A stretch of 64,000 nucleotides of DNA from Escherichia phage 348Ecol098PP. A program made the translations under genes and the position numbers. The notes below the pieces were generated by a model, which had not been told where the DNA came from, made no database searches, and saw only the letters and a program-made list of their open reading frames with translations. Each line of letters starts with the position of its first letter. The first letter of the stretch is position 1. The DNA is taken from sequence record OR062947.1. One strand, 5' to 3'. This document shows, in pieces, positions 12,777 to 29,227 of the stretch.

Positions 12777-14461
12777 AATCATTTAAATTAAATCGTGTTC
12801 GTTATCAAAACATCATGTCGGTAGGTGGGAATCCTATTGACATCCAATTAGATAAAGTCCAAAAGACATTAATCACTGGTAAAAATGGTGGTGGTAAATC
12901 TACGATGTTAGAAGCCATTACTTTCGGACTTTTCGGTAAACCATTTCGTGATGTTAAGAAAGGGCAAATCATTAATAGCACGAACAAGAAAGAGCTCTTA
13001 GTTGAGCTTTGGATGGAATTCGATGGTAAAAAATACTTCATTAAACGTGGCCAAAAGCCCAATATTTTCGAAATCTCCGTTGACGGTGTTCGTCTCGATG
13101 AATCTGCCAGCAGTCGTGACTTCCAAGAAGAATTTGAACGTAGCATCGGAATGTCATACGCGTCTTTTAAACAAATCGTTGTGCTTGGGACGGCAGGGTA
13201 TACCCCTTTCATGGCTCTTAGCACCCCTGCTCGTAGAAAACTTGTCGAAGACCTTTTAGAAGTCGGCACACTCGCTGAAATGGATAAAATCAATAAGTCT
13301 CAAGTTCGAGAACTTAATTCCCAGGGACAAGTTCTCGATGCCAAGAAAGATGGTGTTATCCAACAAATTAAGATTTATAACGAGAATATCGAACGTCAAA
13401 AGAAATTATCTGGTGATAATGTAGCGCGTCTACAGAATATGTATGATGACCTAGCCAAAGAAGCTCGTTCATTAAAAGCAGAAATCGAAGAAGCTAATGA
13501 GCGACTACTTAATATCGTTCTTGATGAAGACCCTACTGAGGCATTCAACAAGATCGGACAAGAAGCATTCTTGATTAAATCTAAAATCGACTCATATAAC
13601 AAAGTTATTAAGATGTATCATGACGGTGGCACATGTCCTACTTGTGCGTCACAGTTGCACCAGGGTGACCCTATTGTCTCTAAGATTACCGATAAGCTTC
13701 ATGAATGTAATCACTCATTCGAGCAACTTACATGTCACAGAGATAATCTGAGTGTCCTAGTGGACGAATATAGAGCTAATGTTAAGACTAAACAGGACCT
13801 TGCATCTGATATTCGTACCAAGAAACAAGCAATGATTGCCACTATTGATAAAGCTAAGAAAGTTAAAGCTGCAATAGAACAAGCCTCGGCGGAATTTATC
13901 GACCATGCCGATGAGATAGCTTTGCTTCAAAAAGAACTTGATAAAATCATTAAAACAAAATCAGATATCGTTCTTGAAAAATACCATCGTGGTATTATCA
14001 CAGATATGTTAAAAGATTCTGGTATTAAAGGTGCTATCATTAAAAAATACGTGCCTCTGTTCAACAAGCAGATTAACCATTATCTTAAAATCATGGAAGC
14101 TGATTACGTGTTTTCTATTGACGAAGAATTCAATGAATCTATAAAATCACGTGGCCGCGAAGAGTTCAGTTATGCTTCATTTAGTCAAGGTGAAAAAGCA
14201 CGTATCGATATCGCGTTATTGTTTACATGGCGAGATATTGCTGAAAAGGTCTCTGGTGTTAGAATCAATACATTAATTATGGACGAAGTCATGGATTCCG
14301 CGACTGATTCTGAAGGTATTAAAGCTATTTCAACAATTCTTAACTCTCTAACCGATGCAAACGTGTTTATAATTAGTCACAGAGACCATGACCCACAAGC
14401 TTATGGACAGCATTTGCAAATGAGCAAAGTTGGACGATTTACTGTAATGAAAGCCTCTTAA
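12773..14461 (+). CDS. 46: recombination endonuclease subunit gp46 (Rad50/SbcC-like ATPase)
   Basis: 562 aa; Walker A GKNGGGKST, zinc hook CPTC, signature/Walker B near C-terminus. Confidence 0.92.
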   Translation: MKSFKLNRVRYQNIMSVGGNPIDIQLDKVQKTLITGKNGGGKSTMLEAITFGLFGKPFRDVKKGQIINSTNKKELLVELWMEFDGKKYFIKRGQKPNIFEISVDGVRLDESASSRDFQEEFERSIGMSYASFKQIVVLGTAGYTPFMALSTPARRKLVEDLLEVGTLAEMDKINKSQVRELNSQGQVLDAKKDGVIQQIKIYNENIERQKKLSGDNVARLQNMYDDLAKEARSLKAEIEEANERLLNIVLDEDPTEAFNKIGQEAFLIKSKIDSYNKVIKMYHDGGTCPTCASQLHQGDPIVSKITDKLHECNHSFEQLTCHRDNLSVLVDEYRANVKTKQDLASDIRTKKQAMIATIDKAKKVKAAIEQASAEFIDHADEIALLQKELDKIIKTKSDIVLEKYHRGIITDMLKDSGIKGAIIKKYVPLFNKQINHYLKIMEADYVFSIDEEFNESIKSRGREEFSYASFSQGEKARIDIALLFTWRDIAEKVSGVRINTLIMDEVMDSATDSEGIKAISTILNSLTDANVFIISHRDHDPQAYGQHLQMSKVGRFTVMKAS

Positions 14462-15174
14462 TGAGGCTTATGTTTACAGTTATCAAAATGCCAACGACGC
14501 ATATTAGCAGGGATCCCTATTTTATCGCAATGAGGACATTTAATTTTCTTGTCCTCTTTTTTCTTTCTGTTAGGATTTGATTTACAGAATTTTATATGCG
14601 GCTTTAACGCCGATAACTTAGTAGTTAAGCCACAAAACGGACAAGAATCTTCTTTCCAAATTTTCGTGGCCATGGTTTTAATTATTTTATCTTTTGTTTC
14701 TTGATCAAGTTTTACTATTTTAGGCGTAGGGCCTTGTTTACAGTTATCAAAATGCCAACGTCTCATGTTTCCTTCAGTGCCGGTTAAACCGCAGTGTGGA
14801 CATGTAATCTTTGGTTTATTTTTTGCCGACTCAGACATTTTCTTACGAGTTTCAGCAGTGAATTCTTTGTTCTTTTGAACTTCTTGATTCTTACGTCGAA
14901 GCCATCCAAATAATTTGTTTTTGCTTCTATCTGCTTTAGGAGATGAGATAGTCATCATACGAGCAGCATATATTAAAGAGGCATTATCTGGATGGATTTT
15001 TACCAACAGTTGATGTGCCAAATAATGTTCTTCCGGTGTTAAGTCTACTAAGTTTAAAGCATCATCACTTCCACCTAAACATTGTGGTATAATGTGATGA
15101 CGTTCTGTATAACCATCTAAACTTCTTGATTTAGCATTGGTGATAAGCTTTTCGTATATTGAGTTATAATTCAT
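14458..15174 (-). CDS. HNH homing endonuclease-like protein with duplicated zinc-finger modules
   Basis: HHIIPQCLGGSDDALNLVDLTPEEHYLAH HNH motif; three CPxCG modules, two ending RRWHFDNCK; convergent with gene 46. Confidence 0.75.
   Translation of the reverse strand: MNYNSIYEKLITNAKSRSLDGYTERHHIIPQCLGGSDDALNLVDLTPEEHYLAHQLLVKIHPDNASLIYAARMMTISSPKADRSKNKLFGWLRRKNQEVQKNKEFTAETRKKMSESAKNKPKITCPHCGLTGTEGNMRRWHFDNCKQGPTPKIVKLDQETKDKIIKTMATKIWKEDSCPFCGLTTKLSALKPHIKFCKSNPNRKKKEDKKIKCPHCDKIGIPANMRRWHFDNCKHKPH
14471..14496. repeat. 26-bp perfect direct repeat, copy 1 (copy 2 at 14736-14761) inside HNH gene
   Basis: TGTTTACAGTTATCAAAATGCCAACG found twice 265 bp apart. Confidence 0.85.
14736..14761. 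repeat. 26-bp perfect direct repeat, copy 2
   Basis: identical to 14471-14496. Confidence 0.85.
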
Positions 15175-18656: not shown

Positions 18657-21368
18657 ATGAAAGAATTTTACTTAACGGTTGAACAGATTGGTGATTCAAT
18701 TTTTGAACGTTACATCGATTCTAACGGCCGTGAACGTACTCGTGAAGTAGAATATAAACCATCACTGTTTGCTCATTGTCCAGAAAGTCAGGCTACGAAA
18801 TATTTCGATATCTACGGTAAGCCGTGTACTCGTAAGTTGTTCGCTAATATGCGTGATGCCTCCCAATGGATTAAACGCATGGAAGATATCGGTCTTGAAG
18901 CACTTGGCATGGACGATTTCAAATTGGCGTATTTGTCTGACACTTATAACTATGAAATCAAATACGACCATACAAAAATTCGTGTGGCTAACTTCGACAT
19001 CGAAGTAACATCTCCCGATGGGTTCCCTGAGCCATCACAAGCAAAACATCCGATTGATGCTATCACCCATTATGACTCAATTGACGACAGGTTCTACGTA
19101 TTTGATCTATTGAATTCTCCATATGGTAATGTAGAAGAATGGTCTATTGAAATCGCTGCTAAGCTTCAAGAACAAGGCGGTGATGAAGTTCCATCCGAAA
19201 TTATCGATAAAATCATTTATATGCCGTTCGATAACGAAAAAGAATTGTTGATGGAATATCTCAACTTCTGGCAACAGAAAACTCCTGTCATTTTGACTGG
19301 ATGGAACGTTGAGTCATTTGATATTCCATATGTGTATAACCGAATCAAGAATATTTTTGGCGAATCTACTGCGAAACGTTTATCACCACATCGTAAAACT
19401 CGTGTTAAAGTTATCGAAAACATGTATGGTTCTCGTGAAATCATTACATTGTTCGGTATCTCTGTTCTTGATTACATTGACCTTTACAAAAAATTCTCTT
19501 TTACCAATCAACCATCGTATTCTCTGGATTACATTTCAGAATTTGAATTGAACGTTGGTAAACTGAAATATGACGGCCCTATTTCTAAGCTTCGTGAAAG
19601 CAATCACCAACGATATATTTCTTATAACATTATCGACGTGTATCGTGTATTGCAAATTGATGCTAAGCGTCAGTTCATCAACTTGAGTTTGGACATGGGT
19701 TATTATGCTAAAATTCAGATTCAATCTGTGTTTAGCCCAATTAAAACATGGGATGCTATTATTTTTAATAGCCTTAAAGAGCAGAACAAGGTGATTCCAC
19801 AAGGTCGTTCTCACCCGGTTCAACCTTATCCTGGCGCTTTTGTTAAGGAACCTATTCCAAATCGATACAAATATGTAATGAGTTTCGACCTTACATCTCT
19901 GTATCCAAGTATTATTCGCCAAGTGAATATTAGCCCGGAAACAATAGCAGGAACGTTTAAAGTAGCTCCATTGCATGATTATATTAACGCAATCGCTGAA
20001 CGTCCTTCAGATGTGTACAGTTGTTCTCCTAACGGCATGATGTATTATAAAGACCGTGATGGTGTAGTTCCAACTGAAATCACTAAAGTCTTTAATCAAC
20101 GTAAAGAACATAAAGGTTATATGCTTGCGGCTCAACGTAATGGCGAAATAATTAAAGAGGCATTGCATAATCCTAATCTTTCTGTTGATGAACCATTAGA
20201 TGTTGATTATCGTTTCGACTTCAGTGATGAGATTAAAGAAAAGATTAAAAAGTTGTCTGCTAAATCTCTTAATGAAATGTTGTTTAGAGCTCAACGTACT
20301 GAAGTTGCAGGTATGACTGCCCAAATTAACCGTAAATTGCTTATCAACTCACTTTATGGTGCACTTGGAAACGTTTGGTTCCGTTATTATGATTTGCGTA
20401 ATGCTACTGCAATCACAACATTTGGTCAAATGGCTTTACAGTGGATTGAACGTAAAGTTAATGAATATCTGAATGAAGTTTGTGGTACAGAAGGTGAAGC
20501 TTTCGTTCTTTATGGTGATACAGACTCTATTTACGTATCTGCTGATAAAATTATCGATAAGGTTGGTGAATCTAAATTCCGTGATACCAACCATTGGGTA
20601 GACTTCTTAGATAAGTTTGCACGTGAACGTATGGAACCAGCTATTGATAGAGGTTTCCGTGAAATGTGTGAATACATGAACAATAAACAACACTTAATGT
20701 TCATGGACCGAGAAGCTATCGCTGGTCCTCCACTTGGTTCTAAAGGTATTGGTGGATTCTGGACTGGTAAGAAACGTTATGCATTAAACGTGTGGGATAT
20801 GGAAGGTACTCGTTACGCTGAGCCTAAACTCAAAATCATGGGTCTAGAGACTCAGAAATCTTCGACTCCTAAAGCAGTACAGAAAGCTCTTAAAGAATGT
20901 ATTCGTCGTATGCTTCAAGAAGGTGAAGAATCATTACAAGAATATTTTAAAGAGTTTGAAAAAGAATTCCGTCAATTGAATTATATTAGCATCGCGTCTG
21001 TATCTTCTGCGAATAACATTGCTAAATATGATGTTGGTGGATTCCCTGGCCCCAAATGCCCATTCCATATTCGTGGAATTCTGACGTATAACCGGGCTAT
21101 CAAAGGTAATATCGATGCACCGCAAGTTGTAGAAGGTGAAAAAGTATATGTTCTGCCTTTACGTGAAGGAAACCCATTCGGTGATAAATGTATCGCATGG
21201 CCTTCTGGTACTGAAATCACAGATTTAATTAAAGACGACGTACTTCATTGGATGGACTACACTGTTCTCCTTGAGAAGACATTTATTAAACCACTTGAAG
21301 GATTCACATCAGCAGCGAAACTCGATTACGAGAAGAAAGCATCTCTGTTCGATATGTTCGATTTTTGA
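18657..21368 (+). CDS. 43: DNA polymerase gp43 (family B), RB69-type 903 aa
   Basis: MKEFYLTVEQIGDSIFERYIDSNGRERTREVEYKPSLFAHCPESQ... exo and pol motifs (FDIEV, YGDTDS). Confidence 0.97.
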   Translation: MKEFYLTVEQIGDSIFERYIDSNGRERTREVEYKPSLFAHCPESQATKYFDIYGKPCTRKLFANMRDASQWIKRMEDIGLEALGMDDFKLAYLSDTYNYEIKYDHTKIRVANFDIEVTSPDGFPEPSQAKHPIDAITHYDSIDDRFYVFDLLNSPYGNVEEWSIEIAAKLQEQGGDEVPSEIIDKIIYMPFDNEKELLMEYLNFWQQKTPVILTGWNVESFDIPYVYNRIKNIFGESTAKRLSPHRKTRVKVIENMYGSREIITLFGISVLDYIDLYKKFSFTNQPSYSLDYISEFELNVGKLKYDGPISKLRESNHQRYISYNIIDVYRVLQIDAKRQFINLSLDMGYYAKIQIQSVFSPIKTWDAIIFNSLKEQNKVIPQGRSHPVQPYPGAFVKEPIPNRYKYVMSFDLTSLYPSIIRQVNISPETIAGTFKVAPLHDYINAIAERPSDVYSCSPNGMMYYKDRDGVVPTEITKVFNQRKEHKGYMLAAQRNGEIIKEALHNPNLSVDEPLDVDYRFDFSDEIKEKIKKLSAKSLNEMLFRAQRTEVAGMTAQINRKLLINSLYGALGNVWFRYYDLRNATAITTFGQMALQWIERKVNEYLNEVCGTEGEAFVLYGDTDSIYVSADKIIDKVGESKFRDTNHWVDFLDKFARERMEPAIDRGFREMCEYMNNKQHLMFMDREAIAGPPLGSKGIGGFWTGKKRYALNVWDMEGTRYAEPKLKIMGLETQKSSTPKAVQKALKECIRRMLQEGEESLQEYFKEFEKEFRQLNYISIASVSSANNIAKYDVGGFPGPKCPFHIRGILTYNRAIKGNIDAPQVVEGEKVYVLPLREGNPFGDKCIAWPSGTEITDLIKDDVLHWMDYTVLLEKTFIKPLEGFTSAAKLDYEKKASLFDMFDF

Positions 21369-21408
21369 TATAATGACATGGACGGTAAACTAATTAAACG
21401 AGAGAAAT

Positions 21409-22044
21409 ATGAAAACTACTCCTATTACTATCGCTATTGACGCAATCATAAAACAATCTTCTTCTTTGGCCGCTATGGCCAAAGTAATTAGTCAAAACCC
21501 TGCTCGTTATAATGCTATTCTAGAAACTCTTCGACGTCCGGGACTTAGTAATTATGAAAGTCGTGTAATTATTACAGGTGTTGGTAAGAATGCTAATATT
21601 GCAACTAAAGCTTCTGAGACATTTGCTTCACTCGGTATCCCGAGTATGTACTTGAACACTGGGCATTATTCTCACGGCGATGCAGGATTCATTGCGCCTA
21701 ATGATGTGTTGATTCATATTAGTCGTTCTGGTAAAACTGAAGAAATGATAGGCGTGGCTAAGCATCTTAAAATGATTCGACCGAACGTCAAACAGATTCT
21801 GTTGCATTGTAACCCAGACATTCCACAAGAAAATGAAGCCCTTTTTGATTACTCTTTCTGTACAGGCATCGCAGTAGAGGTTGATGAGAATTCTCTGGCT
21901 CCGACTATGTCCACTACATTGTTGTTAGCGCTTATCGATACGTTTGCTATCAACCTTTCGTCTGAACGTGGATTTACCTCTAATGATTTCCTTAAGTTCC
22001 ATCCAGGCGGTGCACTAGGTGCCATGTTACGAGGCGAGCAATGA
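21409..22044 (+). CDS. SIS-domain sugar-phosphate isomerase, KdsD/KpsF/GutQ-type arabinose-5-phosphate isomerase-like (no CBS domains)
   Basis: GVGKNANIATKASETFASLGIPSMYLNTGHYSHGD, ISRSGKTEE, LAPTMSTTLLLAL, RGFTSNDFLKFHPGGALG match the API SIS-domain pattern from memory. Confidence 0.75.
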   Translation: MKTTPITIAIDAIIKQSSSLAAMAKVISQNPARYNAILETLRRPGLSNYESRVIITGVGKNANIATKASETFASLGIPSMYLNTGHYSHGDAGFIAPNDVLIHISRSGKTEEMIGVAKHLKMIRPNVKQILLHCNPDIPQENEALFDYSFCTGIAVEVDENSLAPTMSTTLLLALIDTFAINLSSERGFTSNDFLKFHPGGALGAMLRGEQ

Positions 22045-22184
22045 AAGCAATAACAATAGGACTTTTACTATTGATGCTTGTCATGACTATCTACTGGAGC
22101 TTAACGGCTCCAGTAATGATTCCAACACTTGTAATTGGATGGATTATGATTGGACTACAAGCAAAGTATGAATGCTTTAACTAG
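22041..22184 (+). CDS. small hydrophobic protein (47 aa, single/double TM)
   Basis: manual translation; ATGA overlap with isomerase stop. Confidence 0.4.
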   Translation: MKAITIGLLLLMLVMTIYWSLTAPVMIPTLVIGWIMIGLQAKYECFN

Positions 22185-22225
22185 AATAGTGTACAATACT
22201 CCTACTTACCAATGAGGACCACAAC

Positions 22226-23911
22226 ATGAAAAAAGCTGTTATTCTTGGTGCTGGACTAGCAACTCGTTTGTATCCAATAACGCATCATATTCCTAAGGTG
22301 CTTGTTAACTATAAACAAGACACTATTCTGAGCAATTTGTATACAATTTATTCTGACCTTGGCGCAGATGAAATTATTGTAGTAGTTCATTCAAAATTTG
22401 CTGGAACTGTTCGAGCTTATTGTGAGCAAGAAGGGTTCAATGTGACTATTCGTACAGTTGATGAAGCGTATGGTTCTGCTTATGCTCTTGCTAAATTGCA
22501 CAAAGATTTAGACGGCCATAATGTAATTGTTAACTGGTGTGATATTATTCCTGATTTTGGTTCATGGTCTTGGAATGTTAACGCAATCTATGTTAAGGGT
22601 GACGAATGTCGATATAATTTCGACGGTGAAAATATCACTAACGTAGGTTCAACAGGTGGTAATGTTGTAGGAATTTACCAGTTCAAAGACTGGGAATTCT
22701 ATATGGGTTCTACCGATGAGGAAATTCATGAATACTGCAAAGGACGTGATTTCGTAGAATTCCTTTACGGCAGTGCATTCAATAAATCAGAGCTTATGAA
22801 TCTAATTGATTTAGGTGATATGCCTAAACTTGAAAAGGCTCATGAAGTTCGTGAACTTAATCGTAGTTTTAATGCAGTTGAAATTGGTGAAGAAACTGTA
22901 ACTAAATTCGCATTAACCGAACAAGGCCGAGCTCTTCAGAAAGATGAGATTTCATGGTATCTTAAAGTGAAATCAGATTCAGTTCCTCAGTTAGTTTCTG
23001 TTAATGAAAATAACTTTGAAATGGAACGCATTAAAGGTAAGCCGGCATTTGAATATATTAAATCCAAATCGAGTCTCGCTCGTCCACAAATTGTTGATGC
23101 AATTTTAGATGCACTGAAATTCAGCACAGACACTTATTTTGTAAGTCCTGAAACTGTTCGTCGTGATTTCACTAAAGAATTCTATACGAAAGTTATTGAT
23201 CGTTGTGAAAGTATTCAACCATTGATTGATTCATTTGGTAAAATAACACATGTGAACTACACTAAGATTGGGCGTCTGAAGCCAATGTTGAAACAAGCTT
23301 TAGAACACCTTATTCGTTATCATAACCGTTCTCAGGGACAGTACTCTGTTATTCATGGTGACCCGAACTTCAGTAATACTATGATTACTGATAATGGCGA
23401 AGTCAAGTTTATCGACCCTCGTGGATATTTTGGTGAAACCAAGATTTACGGGCCAAAATTGTATGATGAAGCTAAAGTGCTTTACGCTGTTTCAGGATAT
23501 GATGAATTCAACGCTAATCCGACCTGGGGGCAGTTTACTATTGATGAAACAACTTGTAATGTGACTATTAACATCAATCCATTAGTTTACAAATATGGAA
23601 AGATGAGTTCGTTTAACGAGTATCATCATTTGGCGGTGGCAATTATCTGGATTGCATTAGGTGGTTATTTCAAGAATAATCCACTTAAAGCGGTAGCCGC
23701 ATATTATAAAGGTATGGAACTTCTGACTAAGCAATTACGTAACATGGGCCGTGTACTTCAGGACGGCACCATTAGTTATGACGTAGCAGAACCTGTAACG
23801 GCTACTCTGATTACAAAAAATCCTGGTAAATGGGTACTAACTGATAAAGAAACTGGTGTTTCCTATCGTCCAATCGGTGGCGATATCACTCATCAATGGG
23901 AACGAATCTAA
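22226..23911 (+). CDS. bifunctional sugar-1-phosphate nucleotidyltransferase / sugar anomeric kinase (APH/choline-kinase fold) fusion
   Basis: N-terminal AVILGAGLATRLYPIT..PK nucleotidyltransferase signature; C-terminal IHGDPNFSN and FIDPRG kinase motifs. Confidence 0.75.
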   Translation: MKKAVILGAGLATRLYPITHHIPKVLVNYKQDTILSNLYTIYSDLGADEIIVVVHSKFAGTVRAYCEQEGFNVTIRTVDEAYGSAYALAKLHKDLDGHNVIVNWCDIIPDFGSWSWNVNAIYVKGDECRYNFDGENITNVGSTGGNVVGIYQFKDWEFYMGSTDEEIHEYCKGRDFVEFLYGSAFNKSELMNLIDLGDMPKLEKAHEVRELNRSFNAVEIGEETVTKFALTEQGRALQKDEISWYLKVKSDSVPQLVSVNENNFEMERIKGKPAFEYIKSKSSLARPQIVDAILDALKFSTDTYFVSPETVRRDFTKEFYTKVIDRCESIQPLIDSFGKITHVNYTKIGRLKPMLKQALEHLIRYHNRSQGQYSVIHGDPNFSNTMITDNGEVKFIDPRGYFGETKIYGPKLYDEAKVLYAVSGYDEFNANPTWGQFTIDETTCNVTININPLVYKYGKMSSFNEYHHLAVAIIWIALGGYFKNNPLKAVAAYYKGMELLTKQLRNMGRVLQDGTISYDVAEPVTATLITKNPGKWVLTDKETGVSYRPIGGDITHQWERI

Positions 23912-24297
23912 TGCACCGTGTAGAAAACATGCTTAATCTTTGTTTTGATGTCGATGATTGTATAACAGAGTGGAATAACAATCGTGATTACGTGAACTTC
24001 AAACCAGACGTCGAAATGGTGTCTGCCATTAATGCCCTATATGATGCAGGGCATACCATAACGCTTTACACTGCTCGCGGTATGAAGTCAGTAGGTCCTG
24101 GTCGTATAGCAATTGACATTCTCCCAAGTCTGATTCAGAACTTGGCAAACATTGGCTTGAAGTACCATAATTTGCTAACACATAAACCAGTATATGATTG
24201 GATTATCGACGACAAAGCTATGCGTCCTGACGAATTCAAAGCTCTTATGAATAAAGGCGAATTCGAAACATTTAAATCATATAAACCGAATCTATAA
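23911..24297 (+). CDS. HAD-superfamily phosphatase
   Basis: motif I FDVDDCIT near N-terminus; TAATG overlap with upstream stop; ORF-track frame. Confidence 0.65.
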   Translation: MHRVENMLNLCFDVDDCITEWNNNRDYVNFKPDVEMVSAINALYDAGHTITLYTARGMKSVGPGRIAIDILPSLIQNLANIGLKYHNLLTHKPVYDWIIDDKAMRPDEFKALMNKGEFETFKSYKPNL

Positions 24298-24351
24298 TAA
24301 TTTAAGTAAGACCTGCAAAAACCATCGCAACAATTAACGCGAGATGCAAAA

Positions 24352-25512
24352 ATGAATACCTTTAAAATCGGAACGAATTTTGATTTAGCTCTTCTTGATA
24401 AAATCGTAGAGCTCAATAAAACTTATCCTAATAGCTTGATAAACGAAGTATACGGCTCTACAAGAGAAATGGCTTTTGTAGCAGCCAGACCTGATTTTAG
24501 GCTTCCTGACGTTGACAAAAAGATGTTAGAAGATTACGTTAAACGTTGTAACGAATTAGGTATTTGCTTTAACTATACACTCAACACGATAAATCCTGGT
24601 TCAAAAAGAGAACTAGTTGAGTGGAAGAAGAAAGCTATTCAGGATTATGTTCAGTATCTTTGGTCAATAGGCGTATGGCGTATTACTATCGCTAACCCTG
24701 TTGTTATGGAAATTGTTCGTGAAGTCAATAAAGACATTGAGATTGAAGTTTCAACAATTCTACATGTCGATGCTGTAACTCAAATCAAATACTTGCATGA
24801 CCAATATAATATCAAAAAGGTCTGCTGTGGAATTCATAAGAACCGTTCAGTTTCTTTCCTGAAGCGTGCAGCAGAGTTTTGCAATAAGAACAATATAATA
24901 TTTGAAGTTCTCGTAAATGAATTCTGCTCTAATGCTGGTAAAGGGTATACAACACATTGTAGTTATCGTGACTCTTGCTATATTTTCCATAGCACCGATG
25001 TTACAGTAGATGATGCCAAATCCTTAAATGGATATCCTATGCAGCACTGTATTAAAGCTCGTGATACAGACCCATTTAACTGGTTGAGAACTCGTTTTGT
25101 TCGTCCTCAAGATTTGAAACTTTATAATGATATTGGTATCACTCAATTCAAAGTTTCAGGACGTACAGGTAGCACCGACTACATTTTGAAAGTTCTTGAA
25201 GCTTATGCTTCTGAAAAGTTTGAAGGTAATTTGTTGGAATTGTGGAAGCCTTTAGAGACTATTTTCACTCTTGAAAATGAGACCGAGTTTTCACATACGG
25301 TAAATATTGAAACCTCTTTGTTAGATGGCTTTTTAGAAAAAAGGTGGTTCAAACATCCAGATTTCGATTGTGCTAATGAAATCTGCGGGACGACGTGTAC
25401 ATATTGTGAAAGATATTATAAACGTCAGTTATCTAAAAATGGGTTAGCAGAAAACTCTATATCTATTATTGATATAACTAACTCTGATGACGCTTTGAGG
25501 TACCCGGAATGA
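24352..25512 (+). CDS. peptidase-U32-family (TIM barrel, Cys-rich) protein
   Basis: NEVYGSTREMAFVAARPDF, ICFNYTLNTINPG, EFCSNAGKGYTTHCSYRDSC resemble U32 proteins as recalled from memory. Confidence 0.5.
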   Translation: MNTFKIGTNFDLALLDKIVELNKTYPNSLINEVYGSTREMAFVAARPDFRLPDVDKKMLEDYVKRCNELGICFNYTLNTINPGSKRELVEWKKKAIQDYVQYLWSIGVWRITIANPVVMEIVREVNKDIEIEVSTILHVDAVTQIKYLHDQYNIKKVCCGIHKNRSVSFLKRAAEFCNKNNIIFEVLVNEFCSNAGKGYTTHCSYRDSCYIFHSTDVTVDDAKSLNGYPMQHCIKARDTDPFNWLRTRFVRPQDLKLYNDIGITQFKVSGRTGSTDYILKVLEAYASEKFEGNLLELWKPLETIFTLENETEFSHTVNIETSLLDGFLEKRWFKHPDFDCANEICGTTCTYCERYYKRQLSKNGLAENSISIIDITNSDDALRYPE

Positions 25513-25790
25513 TTTCTAGAAAAACTTTTAACCACCAACTTAATGAAGAGATTTTGACTATGAAAATTAACAGCAACGAACAAATTCTTAAAAAGGCCCT
25601 TATGGGCCTGTTTGAAACTAAAGCGGCTAAAGTGATTAAAGAAACCTGTTCAACTAGAATACTACGCTGATGCATTTCTTCATAGTGTTCTTGGAAGTAT
25701 CGATGCTGAAGCTTTACGTTATATCAACATCGCTAAGAAATTCAAATAAGCTTTATGAATTGAGTATATAATAACTGTATTGAGGTAAAC

Positions 25791-26507
25791 ATGGGAAAAC
25801 ATAACACAATGAAATATATTAAAGCCGCAGATTTTCAATCCGCATTTAAAGCTGTCAATCGTGAAATTTTAGAAAATCCACAGTTCGTTACTGACTCTCG
25901 TATTGGACGTTGTAATGAAATTGGGTCTATGACAGTAGTTGTTGATACCCCTTCATCATTCAAAATGACCGACCCACGTATTAATCGCATCTCTTATGAA
26001 TATGCTGAAGATTTCTGGAAATTTATGATTTCTGGTGGTACTGATGCAGAAGAAGCATTTAAGGCATATCCTAACGTTGCTAAATTTATTTCTAAACCTA
26101 AATCAGATGCTTTGCCTGCAAACTTCAACACTTTCTACGGTCCACGAATTGCGGCCCAGTTACCAGCTCTTCTCAAAGAACTTAAAGAGAAACCTAATTC
26201 ACGAAGAGTTGTGTTTCAAATTCTTGAAAGTTCAGATCAGGCTTTGCTTGATTCGGATGAAACACTTGAATATCCATGTACTGACTCAGTGACTTATTAT
26301 ATTCGTGATGGTAAGCTTTATACCCACTGTCATATGCGTTCTCAGAACTGTGCTGTTGTTATGCAGTTGGATTTTTATCTCCAAGGAAAATTACTTCATT
26401 ATATCGCTAACGAATGTGGTGTAGAAGTTGGTGATTATACTCATACCATGGTAAGTGCCCATGTGTTTGAACGTGATTTTGATTATGTTAAAGGATTCCT
26501 TGACTAA
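25791..26507 (+). CDS. 42: dCMP hydroxymethylase (thymidylate-synthase fold)
   Basis: PNSRRVVFQI and YPCTDSVTYYIRDGKLYTHCHMRSQN align with the SRR and catalytic Cys regions of T4 gp42. Confidence 0.8.
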   Translation: MGKHNTMKYIKAADFQSAFKAVNREILENPQFVTDSRIGRCNEIGSMTVVVDTPSSFKMTDPRINRISYEYAEDFWKFMISGGTDAEEAFKAYPNVAKFISKPKSDALPANFNTFYGPRIAAQLPALLKELKEKPNSRRVVFQILESSDQALLDSDETLEYPCTDSVTYYIRDGKLYTHCHMRSQNCAVVMQLDFYLQGKLLHYIANECGVEVGDYTHTMVSAHVFERDFDYVKGFLD

Positions 26508-27406
26508 TGGCTATTTTCCGCGTACCTATCTTGAGTATGCGGTCTTATGAAACTGGACAGTATGCTATCCTTAAGGATGGCAACTTCCAACTTCATTTGC
26601 ACCGTGCTAATCCGGGTGATGTGATTACATATCCACGTAATGCATCTGATATTAAAGAATGTGAACGTCTTTTCCCAGAATTTAAGTTTGTTCCATTATG
26701 GTATAAAGATAACGCATATAACACTCGTAAATATTTCTGGTCTGAAAATGAATTTGTGGTTGATTCATTAATTGATTATTATGATTGTGATTTTCTAATC
26801 ACAGATATCACTGGATATGACGGTACTTTTGACGTAGAATTCAATTTCAATATCACTGCAGACCCTAATAAACCACGTTTTTATATTGACGAATTCTTAA
26901 AAACCGATATGTTGTCGGTTAATCGTTCACTTCAAACTACTGTGTTGAATAAACGTCAAAAGGAAGTGCTGGTTAACGCTGGTGCCGATGGTAATAAGAT
27001 TATCGTAACCCAGAAAGTTATACGTCCTTCCATCATGCAGCGTCTTGTAGGTGATTTGGCTCCTATTCATCTAGATGGTATTTTTCATCCATTTCGAATT
27101 AGTGATCCGTGCTATCGTTTTGAACAAGTGGTTGAATGCGCGATTCAATTAGGTCAACCGCTTTATATAACCGATCCAAATAATAGCTTCGACAGAAATA
27201 AGTATCCTGAAGAAGCGTTGATTCGAATTTTTAAACCAACTAAAACTGAGTACTATCAAATTCTTAAAGGACGACCGAAGATTCAATATTTCGAAAATCC
27301 TGAAGAAGTATTTCATCCAGGTCTTGGTGAGTTCATCTACTTTAACGCTTTAATTTCTTCGCCGTATAATATACCTAAATATGAAGATGTCGTAATCGAG
27401 GAATAA
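26507..27406 (+). CDS. hypothetical protein (299 aa) in the syntenic slot of T4 beta-glucosyltransferase; function unknown
   Basis: ORF track; TAATG coupling to gene 42; no recognisable beta-gt similarity. Confidence 0.8.
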   Translation: MAIFRVPILSMRSYETGQYAILKDGNFQLHLHRANPGDVITYPRNASDIKECERLFPEFKFVPLWYKDNAYNTRKYFWSENEFVVDSLIDYYDCDFLITDITGYDGTFDVEFNFNITADPNKPRFYIDEFLKTDMLSVNRSLQTTVLNKRQKEVLVNAGADGNKIIVTQKVIRPSIMQRLVGDLAPIHLDGIFHPFRISDPCYRFEQVVECAIQLGQPLYITDPNNSFDRNKYPEEALIRIFKPTKTEYYQILKGRPKIQYFENPEEVFHPGLGEFIYFNALISSPYNIPKYEDVVIEE

Positions 27407-27407
27407 A

Positions 27408-27956
27408 ATGGCTAAAATTATTTTAGTAGATGGCCCAGATAATGCTGGTAAAACAACTTTCATTAATGACATAATGGAAATTAGTGAAAGATATGTAAAG
27501 ATTGATTTCCCTAAACGAACAGTTGATGGACGTTTCGATGTTAAGTCTCGAAATGAAGTTGGCTGTTTCGAAACGATGTTGAATTATTTAGACCCTACTA
27601 AGATTTATCTGTTAGACCGTGGATATATTAGTAACTGGGTTTATGGACGTATTCGACAAGACGCGGACTCGGTTCTTGACGTTTATGAACAGGATTATGT
27701 TCGTCTTTGCCAAAACCATGATGTGTTCACAATTATTTTAACACGTAACGAAATGACTGAAAGTTTTGAAGACGACCTTATTACTTTGTCTTCATTCGGT
27801 TTTAATACAGTCATTTCACATTTTGAAGAGTTTGCAATTCATAACAAAATCCAAACGTATCAATTACTTAATCATGATGGTGCTAACAAAGTTATAGGAT
27901 TTAATGCAAGCGAACGTAATGATTTGATTACAGAAATCATCAAATGGGCTCGTTAA
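27408..27956 (+). CDS. P-loop kinase (thymidylate/nucleoside-monophosphate kinase-like)
   Basis: Walker A ILVDGPDNAGKTTF; size 182 aa; GAGGAA RBS. Confidence 0.7.
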   Translation: MAKIILVDGPDNAGKTTFINDIMEISERYVKIDFPKRTVDGRFDVKSRNEVGCFETMLNYLDPTKIYLLDRGYISNWVYGRIRQDADSVLDVYEQDYVRLCQNHDVFTIILTRNEMTESFEDDLITLSSFGFNTVISHFEEFAIHNKIQTYQLLNHDGANKVIGFNASERNDLITEIIKWAR

Positions 27957-28054
27957 GAGCCATTTAAAGTTTTAAATGCTGTATAACCCTTAGTATATAA
28001 TCATCTTATCTTTTAAACATGAGTAAAATATAATGATGCCTATGGAAAAATACA

Positions 28055-29227
28055 ATGTCTGATTTAAAATCTCGTCTGATTAAAGCTTCTACTTCTAAAA
28101 TGACTGCAGACTTGACTAAGTCTAAGCTGTTTAATAATCGTGATGAAGTCCCTACTCGTATTCCGATGTTGAATATTGCACTAGGTGGTGCTCTGAATGC
28201 AGGATTGCAATCAGGCTTGACTATTTTTGCTGCACCTTCTAAACATTTTAAAACATTGTTTGGACTGACCATGGTTGCAGCATATATGAAGAAATATAAA
28301 GATGCAATTTGTTTGTTCTATGATTCAGAATTTGGTGCTTCAGAATCTTATTTTCGTTCAATGGGTGTTGATTTAGACCGTGTAGTTCATACTCCGATTC
28401 AATCTGTCGAACAACTTAAAGTTGATATGACTAATCAGCTTGACGCGATTGAACGTGGTGATAAAGTTATTATCTTTATCGATTCAATCGGTAATACTGC
28501 ATCTAAGAAAGAAACCGAAGATGCGTTGAACGAGAAAGTTGTAGGTGATATGTCTCGTGCTAAGGCACTTAAATCTCTGTTCCGCATTGTGACTCCTTAT
28601 CTGACTATTAAAGATATTCCATGTGTTGCAATCAACCATACAGCAATGGAAATCGGCGGACTATATCCTAAAGAGATTATGGGCGGCGGTACAGGTATTC
28701 TTTACTCTGCTAACACTGTATTCTTTATCTCTAAACGTCAGGTTAAAGAAGGTACAGAATTGACCGGTTATGACTTCACGTTGAAAGCAGAAAAATCTCG
28801 CACAGTTAAAGAGAAATCTACTTTCCCGATCACGGTTAATTTTGATGGCGGTATTGACCCATTCAGTGGCTTGTTAGAAATGGCAACTGAAATTGGTTTT
28901 GTAGTTAAGCCTAAAGCCGGGTGGTATGCTCGTGAATTCCTTGACGAAGAAACAGGCGAAATGATTCGTGAAGAAAAATCATGGCGTGCTAAAGCTACTG
29001 ATTGTGTAGAATTTTGGGGGCCGTTGTTTAAACATAAGCCTTTCCGAGATGCAATTGAAACTAAATATAAACTAGGTGCTATCTCTTCTATTAAAGAAGT
29101 TGATGACGCTGTTAACGACCTTATTAATTGCAAAGCAACAACTAAAGTTCCGGTTAAAACTTCTGATGCTCCGTCTGCAGCAGATATAGAAAACGACCTT
29201 GACGAAATGGAAGATTTCGATGAATAA
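28055..29227 (+). CDS. uvsX: recombinase UvsX (RecA-like)
   Basis: 390 aa; N-terminal MSDLKSRLIKASTSK...; RecA fold motifs. Confidence 0.95.
   Translation: MSDLKSRLIKASTSKMTADLTKSKLFNNRDEVPTRIPMLNIALGGALNAGLQSGLTIFAAPSKHFKTLFGLTMVAAYMKKYKDAICLFYDSEFGASESYFRSMGVDLDRVVHTPIQSVEQLKVDMTNQLDAIERGDKVIIFIDSIGNTASKKETEDALNEKVVGDMSRAKALKSLFRIVTPYLTIKDIPCVAINHTAMEIGGLYPKEIMGGGTGILYSANTVFFISKRQVKEGTELTGYDFTLKAEKSRTVKEKSTFPITVNFDGGIDPFSGLLEMATEIGFVVKPKAGWYAREFLDEETGEMIREEKSWRAKATDCVEFWGPLFKHKPFRDAIETKYKLGAISSIKEVDDAVNDLINCKATTKVPVKTSDAPSAADIENDLDEMEDFDE

Follow-up and report, generated by a model that had tools for sequence, protein, structure and literature searches.

Between the DNA modification genes and uvsX of Escherichia phage 348Ecol098PP (sequence record OR062947.1) lies a gene for a small P-loop kinase, and the question raised by this locus is which substrate such an enzyme would serve. 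The original prediction, made from the sequence of a 64,000-nucleotide stretch of this DNA (the window) alone, took the protein for an extra kinase resembling thymidylate and deoxynucleoside monophosphate (dNMP) kinases that might phosphorylate a modified nucleotide or a sugar intermediate. The gene is the ortholog of RB69 gene product 45 (gp45; RB69p045 / NP_861735.1), and we refer to the protein as gp45. We tentatively propose, with confidence a little short of even, that gp45 is a kinase dedicated to turning 5-hydroxydeoxycytidine monophosphate (5-hydroxy-dCMP) into its diphosphate, working alongside the gene 1 kinase. gp45 is already known in print as a predicted kinase of this pathway and is not a new sighting: it was described in 2021 as homologous to thymidylate kinase, with a presumed part in the modification (PMC8056088), and is listed as a 'nucleotide kinase' in Table 1 of a 2026 paper (PMC13326640). 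New here are its quantified co-occurrence with neighbouring genes, the exclusion of a relationship to gene 1 and an apparently remodelled nucleotide-binding region, together with an exception in Morganella phage MP1, fusions to an MBD4-type domain and a recurring two-kinase pattern.

A conserved gene under purifying selection

The predicted Walker A open reading frame (ORF) is present and conserved. It starts with ATG, its protein begins MAKIILVDGPDNAGKTTF, and residues 1-180 match PHROG 761 with an E-value of 1.6e-45. The protein is identical at 181/182 residues to RB69p045, which RefSeq names thymidylate kinase. RB69 gp45, HY126 XAN60473, Acinetobacter phage DLP3_078 and PHROG 761 are orthologs from which it differs in nothing material, and the RB69 gene holds the same position before uvsX. 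The phage is a Mosigvirus, and the region 21300-28100 is 97.7-98.2% identical to RB69, PHB12, HY126-like and about 150 other phages. Purifying selection acts on the gene: the ratio of nonsynonymous to synonymous substitution rates (dN/dS) ranges from 0.05 to 0.19, with values of 0.06 for the window versus RB69, 0.05 for JS10 versus Marfa, and 0.19, with dS saturated, for MP1 versus Rgz1. This is a real conserved gene and not a chance ORF.

The TAA stop of the upstream 299-residue glycosyltransferase gene is at 27404-27406, and the kinase ATG follows after one base; given this junction, we consider the two genes to be tightly coupled. Downstream, uvsX begins at 28055. Scanning 25400-28300 for promoters and terminators yielded sites no more numerous than in shuffled sequence, and the transcription unit is thus not defined beyond the one-base gene junction.

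gp45 has a divergent thymidylate kinase fold

Conserved residues were taken from an alignment of 21 homologs (A1), with the JS10 and Marfa kinases outside it. The invariant positions are G9, D11, N12, G14, K15 and T16; F34, P35 and K36; G41 and R42; R48, N49 and E50; F54, E55 and T56; D70 and R71; S75 and N76; R113; F120, D122, D123, L124 and I125; F132 and N133; H156; and N160. The catalytic residues expected of a kinase, namely K15/T16, the acidic P-loop residue D11, K36, D70-R71, R113 and D122-D123, are invariant in 21/21 homologs. The JS10 and Marfa proteins deviate from the invariants at R42, R48, E50 and F54.

Single-protein searches of Pfam, NCBIfam and PDB sequences returned only P-loop noise. 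In Pfam, PF02223 (Thymidylate kinase) was unreported even at E <= 1, and the matches obtained, to AAA_14 and MMR_HSR1, were sub-threshold. In NCBIfam, TIGR00041 matched the P-loop region only, with 16.6 bits where the cutoff is 83.25, and phmmer against PDB sequences found no thymidylate kinase. Membership of the curated thymidylate kinase families (PF02223, TIGR00041) was rejected, as gp45 falls below the model cutoffs. The family profile reached vaccinia thymidylate kinase at only E = 0.003. The family is small: the A1 profile retrieved 304 of 1.84 billion cluster representatives with E <= 0.001, a number that falls to 45 with the limit set to 1e-10.

Profile-profile comparison (hhalign) with human, vaccinia and E. 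coli thymidylate kinases, whose sequences were verified against PDB, gave a match of 94.9% probability (E = 4e-8) over residues 1-83 only. Three pairs of motifs fall in the same columns: the P-loops, FPKR with FPER, and LDRGY with VDRYA. LDRGYISNWVY of gp45 stands opposite VDRYAFSGVAF of the human enzyme, and we predict that D70-R71 corresponds to the DR(Y/H/F) motif that follows strand 3 in thymidylate kinases. The P-loop GPDNAGKT carries the invariant D11, and the third residue of the second motif is Gly, followed by Tyr (DRGY versus D-R-(Y/H/F)). Opposite the thymidylate kinase segment HLLFSANR the gp45 family has an 11-residue gap.

The AlphaFold2 model of gp45 (mean predicted local distance difference test score 88.7) has genuine thymidylate kinases as its best structural matches, and by this model the protein adopts the thymidylate kinase three-dimensional fold. 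Thymidylate kinases have two helices between strands 2 and 3, and in the human enzyme F72 of the base-binding helix stacks on the base, accompanied by R76. The gp45 model has one helix (45-58) at this place. Compared with cellular and viral thymidylate kinases (vaccinia A48R, 2v54; human, 1e2d; E. coli, 4tmk), gp45 is about 20-30 residues shorter and appears to lack a counterpart of the stacking-Phe/Arg segment; it has Asn where the eukaryotic/poxviral type has the P-loop Arg, and it has only one lid Arg. The lid-like loop TRNEMTESFEDDLI sits between strand 105-111 and helix 129-145 in the model, and its motif is also present in distant relatives and in fusion proteins. gp45 thus appears from its model and alignments to be a compact, divergent thymidylate-kinase-fold enzyme with intact catalytic residues and a remodelled nucleotide-binding subdomain. 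With this region apparently remodelled and the alignment ending at residue 83, with a gap at the key helix, residue-by-residue mapping of the substrate site onto thymidylate kinases yielded no substrate, and none can be deduced from the sequence.

The likeness to thymidylate kinases that had been noted from the Walker A motif and the protein size is thus borne out by fold; a relationship to the dNMP kinase of T4 gene 1 is not seen. gp45 has no sequence or profile similarity to T4 gp1 (1dek) or to RB69 gp159, and we rejected paralogy with them; the case that the original prediction had named as its refutation, a gene 1 paralog, does not apply on the sequence side. No homolog of the gene 1 kinase was found within the 64-kb window. 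The two types may be alike in function, as phage kinases feeding modified dCMP toward the triphosphate pool.

The kinase tracks the 5-hydroxy-dCMP synthase and the first glycosyltransferase

The island of modification genes spans the interval from the DNA polymerase gene (18657-21368) to uvsX, and the kinase gene is its last member. In one cluster it holds a thymidylate synthase (ThyA) homolog with a D169N signature, the first glycosyltransferase and the genes for uridine diphosphate (UDP)-arabinose. The equivalent place in T4 holds beta-gt, the mobile homing endonuclease gene segA and uvsX. The gene is therefore extra relative to T4, as had been predicted, and T4 has no kinase there; the description of the T4 position as empty comes close, segA being the only gene between beta-gt and uvsX.

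The synthase indicates which base is involved. RB69 DNA carries arabinosylated 5-hydroxycytosine (Lee et al. 2026, PMC13326640), and the RB69 ThyA homolog gp48 makes 5-hydroxy-dCMP using flavin and O2 (PMC13326640). The ThyA homolog of the window has the diagnostic D169N signature, MRSQN (alignment A3), where T4 gp42 has MRSND. It shares 99% identity with its RB69 and HY126 counterparts, both of which have been shown to produce 5-hydroxy-dCMP (PMC13326640). We therefore assign its base to the 5-hydroxycytosine type and not to hydroxymethylcytosine, and any modified nucleotide serving as substrate of gp45 would be 5-hydroxy-dCMP or a derivative. On the same grounds, the hydroxymethyl-dCMP named as a test substrate in the original prediction should be 5-hydroxy-dCMP.

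Of 50,697 phage records searched by tblastn, 343 have a match to the kinase, 348 to the glycosyltransferase and 394 to the synthase; 22 Rhizobium and 10 Clostridium records contribute to the synthase total. Counted by genus as kinase/glycosyltransferase/synthase, the records number 176/176/176 for Escherichia, 57/57/57 for Acinetobacter, 25/26/26 for Klebsiella, 15/15/15 for Shigella, 9/14/9 for Serratia, 9/9/9 for Enterobacter and 7/7/7 for Proteus. By these counts, which almost match, co-occurrence of the kinase with the synthase and the first arabinosyltransferase is near-perfect among T4-like phages. Tequatrovirus records were absent among the matches listed for any of the three proteins.

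The kinase gene lies within the island in 19/20 tabulated T4-type loci. In JS10, Marfa and locus L031 it stands not at the island end but between the phosphatase gene and the U32 gene or the synthase gene; the kinase stays in the island despite the changed gene order, and the linkage therefore survives rearrangement.

A kinase gene without its island in Morganella phage MP1

MP1 alone departs from this linkage. Its kinase gene (L027:9995-10525; NC_031020 20500-21030) is intact between polymerase and uvsX, and the protein retains 37/37 family-invariant residues. The scan covered 130 of the 163 kb of the MP1 genome, the sequence outside the structural gene block at 85-118 kb. Genes for a synthase, a glycosyltransferase, a U32 protein, a chorismate mutase, a phosphatase, a nucleotidyltransferase and an isomerase are all absent from this sequence, as are homologs of T4 gp42 and beta-gt, and its sole ThyA is a canonical thymidylate synthase. 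A gene-1-type kinase is present, as are proteins annotated as Alc-like, DenB-like and, at the gene-56 position, dUTPase. The MP1 genome paper does not mention DNA modification. Rgz1, a relative of MP1, has the full island.

Distant relatives and analogous systems

Three family members from uncultured phage contigs (P0059, P0060 and P0065; E about 1e-19 to 1e-15) carry the kinase domain followed by a C-terminal MBD4-type DNA glycosylase domain. Structures of the MBD4 catalytic domain match it at E = 7e-20, and EPxDKEL, the motif with the catalytic Asp, is preserved. The genes for P0059 and P0060 (on L008 and L009) adjoin ThyA homologs with the D169N signature; that for P0065 begins 127 bases from the locus end, and its upstream gene is out of view. 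On L008 the neighbours include isomerase and bifunctional-enzyme homologs, and a flavin mononucleotide (FMN) reductase gene lies between the fusion gene and the arabinose genes. The synthases beside these distant relatives of gp45 are predicted 5-hydroxy-dCMP synthases.

A comparable arrangement occurs in a second phage family. Rhizobium phage P10VF (Pootjesviridae; L006:4833-8387) has a D169N synthase, a glycosyltransferase homolog (E = 7e-10) and a thymidylate-kinase-like kinase with a below-cutoff match to PF02223 (E = 4.8e-5). The phage also encodes a distinct protein with a dNMP kinase annotation and, nearby, a YfbR-like 5'-deoxynucleotidase. Its relative RL38JI has DNA with glycosylated 5-hydroxycytosine. 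The gene order around the Pootjesviridae kinase (P10VF_179; RL38J1_214) is as in the RB69-type island. Orthology of this kinase with gp45 was rejected: hhalign gave a probability of 27.6%, the Foldseek match ranked 42 with a TM score of 0.49, and TRAF stands in place of DRGY. The Rhizobium phage kinase is analogous to gp45, not orthologous.

We also compared the gp45 family with M6 gp54, the 5-hydroxymethyluracil DNA kinase (5-HMUDK) of Pseudomonas phage M6. By hhalign the probability was 80% (E = 1.4e-5), with the match confined to the N-terminal 85 columns. M6 gp54 has F-E where the gp45 family has its invariant D-R, and close kinship is unsupported beyond the P-loop. No aGPT-Pplase or 5-hydroxymethyl-dUMP synthase gene is found in the island of the window, where the partner enzyme makes 5-hydroxy-dCMP. 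The likeness lies in the setting: a small phage P-loop kinase beside a ThyA-family pyrimidine-modifying enzyme, with a fused glycosylase-fold domain as partner in the relatives of gp45. The pairing of a kinase with a glycosylase fold follows the logic published for 5-HMUDK and aGPT-Pplase (PMC8989533).

Proposed function and alternatives

On the proposal put forward here, gp45 would be a catalytically active, thymidylate-kinase-fold nucleotide monophosphate kinase belonging to the arabinosyl-5-hydroxycytosine module. Its most likely reaction would be ATP + 5-hydroxy-dCMP -> ADP + 5-hydroxy-dCDP, the substrate being supplied by the ThyA-like synthase, whose gene lies two genes upstream. Host nucleoside diphosphate kinase would then make the triphosphate for the phage polymerase, and gp45 would run in parallel with the T4-gene-1-type dNMP kinase, gp159 in RB69. 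Kinase, synthase and first glycosyltransferase probably arrived together as one mobile module. We favour a 5-hydroxy-dCMP kinase because of the fold, the conserved catalytic residues, purifying selection and near-perfect co-occurrence; because the linkage survives rearrangement and distant members and fusions adjoin D169N ThyA homologs; and because P10VF has a parallel gene order and two papers predict the same general role (PMC8056088; PMC13326640). A phage kinase appears to be needed, since the synthase alone leads to incorporation of only traces of 5-hydroxydeoxycytidine (5-hydroxy-dC) in E. coli (PMC13326640).

Several points weigh on the other side. RB69 gp159 converts 5-hydroxy-dCMP to the diphosphate in vitro, and synthase plus gp159 suffice for 5-hydroxy-dC in E. 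coli DNA (PMC13326640), so gp45 is not needed for the diphosphate step in that setting. MP1 keeps the kinase without the island, and gp45 can thus persist without 5-hydroxycytosine synthesis. The nucleotide-binding region appears remodelled, with one helix instead of two and the 11-residue gap at the stacking Phe/Arg, and neither PMC8056088 nor PMC13326640 reports an assay of gp45.

A generic thymidylate or pyrimidine dNMP kinase, raising the supply of thymidine diphosphate (or of dUDP or dCDP) with no specificity for a modified base, would fit the structural matches to genuine thymidylate kinases, the RefSeq name and the retention of the gene in MP1. We nonetheless regard this as unlikely: gp45 fails the curated models PF02223 and TIGR00041, appears to lack a counterpart of the stacking-Phe/Arg segment, and would add to a gene-1-type phage kinase annotated for thymidine monophosphate and to the host Tmk. 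Nor would a housekeeping kinase be expected to track the synthase and glycosyltransferase counts genus by genus, or to be missing from the hydroxymethylcytosine T-evens. The sugar intermediate named in the original prediction would make gp45 a sugar or sugar-phosphate kinase of UDP-arabinofuranose synthesis, which we consider scarcely tenable. The isomerase, the bifunctional kinase/nucleotidyltransferase and the phosphatase already account for every step between ribulose-5-phosphate and UDP-arabinose, with the activities of HY126 AfhE and AfhF shown by He et al., as PMC13326640 reports; the best structural and profile matches of gp45 are nucleotide kinases; and an analogous kinase occurs in Rhizobium phages using galactose and glucose.

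Improbable, in our estimation, is a kinase for a glycosylated mononucleotide, whereby the glycosyltransferase would arabinosylate 5-hydroxy-dCMP, gp45 would phosphorylate the resulting arabinosyl-5-O-dCMP, and the first sugar would enter DNA via the polymerase. The gene order synthase, glycosyltransferase, kinase mirrors this order of steps, with the last two genes one base apart, and recurs in P10VF; arabinosyl-5-O-dCMP is bulky and the gene 1 kinase may not accept it, whereas the apparently remodelled nucleotide-binding region could suit a larger base, and retention of a second kinase would be explained although gp159 handles 5-hydroxy-dCMP. However, the kinase gene does not adjoin that of the glycosyltransferase in JS10, Marfa or L031, the scanned part of MP1 has the kinase without any glycosyltransferase, and to our knowledge all known T-even glycosylation takes place after replication. 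In its favour, too, the published experiments cannot tell first arabinosylation on the mononucleotide from arabinosylation after replication, and single glycosyltransferases were inactive on 5-hydroxycytosine DNA with UDP-arabinose; but this failure is unpublished negative data on DLP3 enzymes, and the later arabinoses are added on DNA (PMC13326640). Very improbable is a kinase, or nucleotide-binding partner, acting on DNA by analogy with the 5-HMUDK of thymidine hypermodification, where these enzymes are partnered by glycosylase-fold transferases. Fusions to an MBD4-type glycosylase domain beside D169N synthases, the weak profile similarity to M6 gp54 and the published precedent for such a pairing (PMC8989533) would agree with it, but gp45 is more similar to thymidylate kinases, M6 gp54 has F-E for the invariant D-R, and a free 5-hydroxyl can be glycosylated without prior phosphorylation. 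The abstract of PMC13326640 reports no phosphorylated base for RB69 or DLP3 virion DNA, and the fusion may just join two functions of one pathway, such as repair of deaminated 5-hydroxycytosine. That the second kinase is non-redundant in one or other of these two ways, acting on arabinosyl-5-O-dCMP or on DNA with a glycosylase-fold partner, we judge to be distinctly unlikely. Either would explain why two phage families with glycosylated 5-hydroxycytosine keep both a thymidylate-kinase-like kinase and a dNMP kinase, and why isolated glycosyltransferases fail on 5-hydroxycytosine DNA.

Genes of the arabinosyl-5-hydroxycytosine island

The features of the kinase gene, its island and the related loci are collected in Table 1. 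The RB69 reference record splits ORF052/053 and ORF046/047, where the window has single intact ORFs of 561 and 299 residues; the splits have been attributed to sequencing errors (PMC13326640), with which the intact ORFs agree. Elsewhere in the window, between an SbcC-like recombination nuclease gene and the next plus-strand genes, a 238-residue ORF on the minus strand (14458-15174) carries an HNH-like motif (HHIIPQCLGG...N) together with CPHCG...MRRWHFDNCK repeated three times, and looks like a mobile homing endonuclease.

Table 1. Positions of the kinase gene, its motifs, the island genes and related loci. Positions refer to the window unless a locus is named.
Feature	Position	Strand	Basis
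Kinase ORF, RB69 gp45 ortholog (RB69p045 / NP_861735.1), 182 aa	27408..27956	+	thymidylate-kinase-fold P-loop kinase (predicted)
Walker A / P-loop GPDNAGKTT, residues 9-17 (G9-P-D-N-A-G14-K15-T16-T17)	27432..27458	+	alignment A1; aligns with thymidylate kinase P-loop (profile-profile)
LDRGYISNWVY, residues 69-79, invariant D70-R71	27612..27644	+	alignment A1; hhalign
Lid-like loop TRNEMTESFEDDLI, residues 112-125, invariant R113, F120, D122, D123, L124, I125	27741..27782	+	alignment A1
SIS-domain arabinose-5-phosphate isomerase, 211 aa, RB69 gp55 ortholog	21409..22044	+	KpsF/GutQ E = 2e-32, KdsD E = 7e-31, both below family cutoffs
Bifunctional sugar-1-phosphate nucleotidyltransferase and kinase, 561 aa, RB69 gp52:53, AfhE counterpart	22226..23911	+	NCBIfam nucleotidyltransferase matches residues 3-109; PMC13326640
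HAD-type phosphatase, 133 aa, RB69 gp51 ortholog, AfhF counterpart	23896..24297	+	TIGR01689 capsule biosynthesis phosphatase E = 4.3e-13, below family cutoff; PMC13326640
Peptidase_U32-family protein, 386 aa, RB69 gp50 ortholog	24352..25512	+	PF01136 E = 6.3e-11; weak NCBIfam UbiU match; PHROG 5757
Thymidylate synthase homolog, 5-hydroxy-dCMP synthase, 238 aa, RB69 gp48 ortholog	25791..26507	+	Pfam Thymidylat_synt E = 2.4e-15; MRSQN (D169N)
Glycosyltransferase, 299 aa, RB69 gp46:47 ortholog, proposed first arabinosyltransferase	26507..27406	+	PHROG 3891 E = 3.6e-156; assignment PMC13326640
Kinase-MBD4-type fusions, uncultured phage contigs	L008:8001-9074; L009:1446-2390; L010:127-1092
U32-chorismate mutase loci	L014:4494-6004; L035:3667-5400 (Rgz1); L019-L026, L031, L032; Klebsiella KLB31

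The U32 gene has a recurrent neighbour outside the window. In 13 loci of other genera it is followed by a gene for a type II chorismate mutase, with examples in Serratia LC53, Morganella Rgz1 and Yersinia, Enterobacter, Edwardsiella and Erwinia phages; the LC53 mutase matches Pfam CM_2 above cutoff (E = 1.7e-11), and the mutase gene is directly upstream of the synthase gene in 12/12 loci where the order is seen. The corresponding slot in the window (25509-25790) holds only a 53-residue ORF (79 residues in RB69, 40 in HY126), and no decayed chorismate mutase was detected in it: the ORF neither matches CM_2 nor clearly resembles the LC53 mutase. Both the U32 gene and the mutase gene are missing from JS10 and the Acinetobacter phages. 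TrhP, RlhA and UbiU/V are U32 proteins that hydroxylate their substrates without oxygen and depend on prephenate, the product of chorismate mutase. Because the U32 and chorismate mutase genes adjoin that of the synthase, which needs O2, this analogy suggests an oxygen-independent route to 5-hydroxycytosine, a testable idea for gut phages under anaerobic conditions. In PMC13326640 the U32 protein is described no further than as a 'sugar or heterocycle reductase', and there is no mention of chorismate, prephenate or an anaerobic route.

Significance

The synthesis of arabinosyl-5-hydroxycytosine in RB69-type phages was worked out only in 2025-2026, and gp45 and the U32-family protein are the two conserved island genes without a demonstrated role. 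If gp45 is a parallel 5-hydroxy-dCMP kinase, the result would be useful and unsurprising; phosphorylation of arabinosyl-5-O-dCMP, if true, would make this the first T4-type phage system in which glycosylation precedes replication. The side finding on U32 and chorismate mutase may matter more than the kinase. Knowing the substrate of gp45 would show whether a separate kinase is required by the modified-nucleotide branch, and might also tell on which side of replication the first arabinose is attached, a point left open by PMC13326640. Its role would complete the enzyme set for making such DNA in vitro and would help to predict which therapeutic phages have restriction-resistant DNA.

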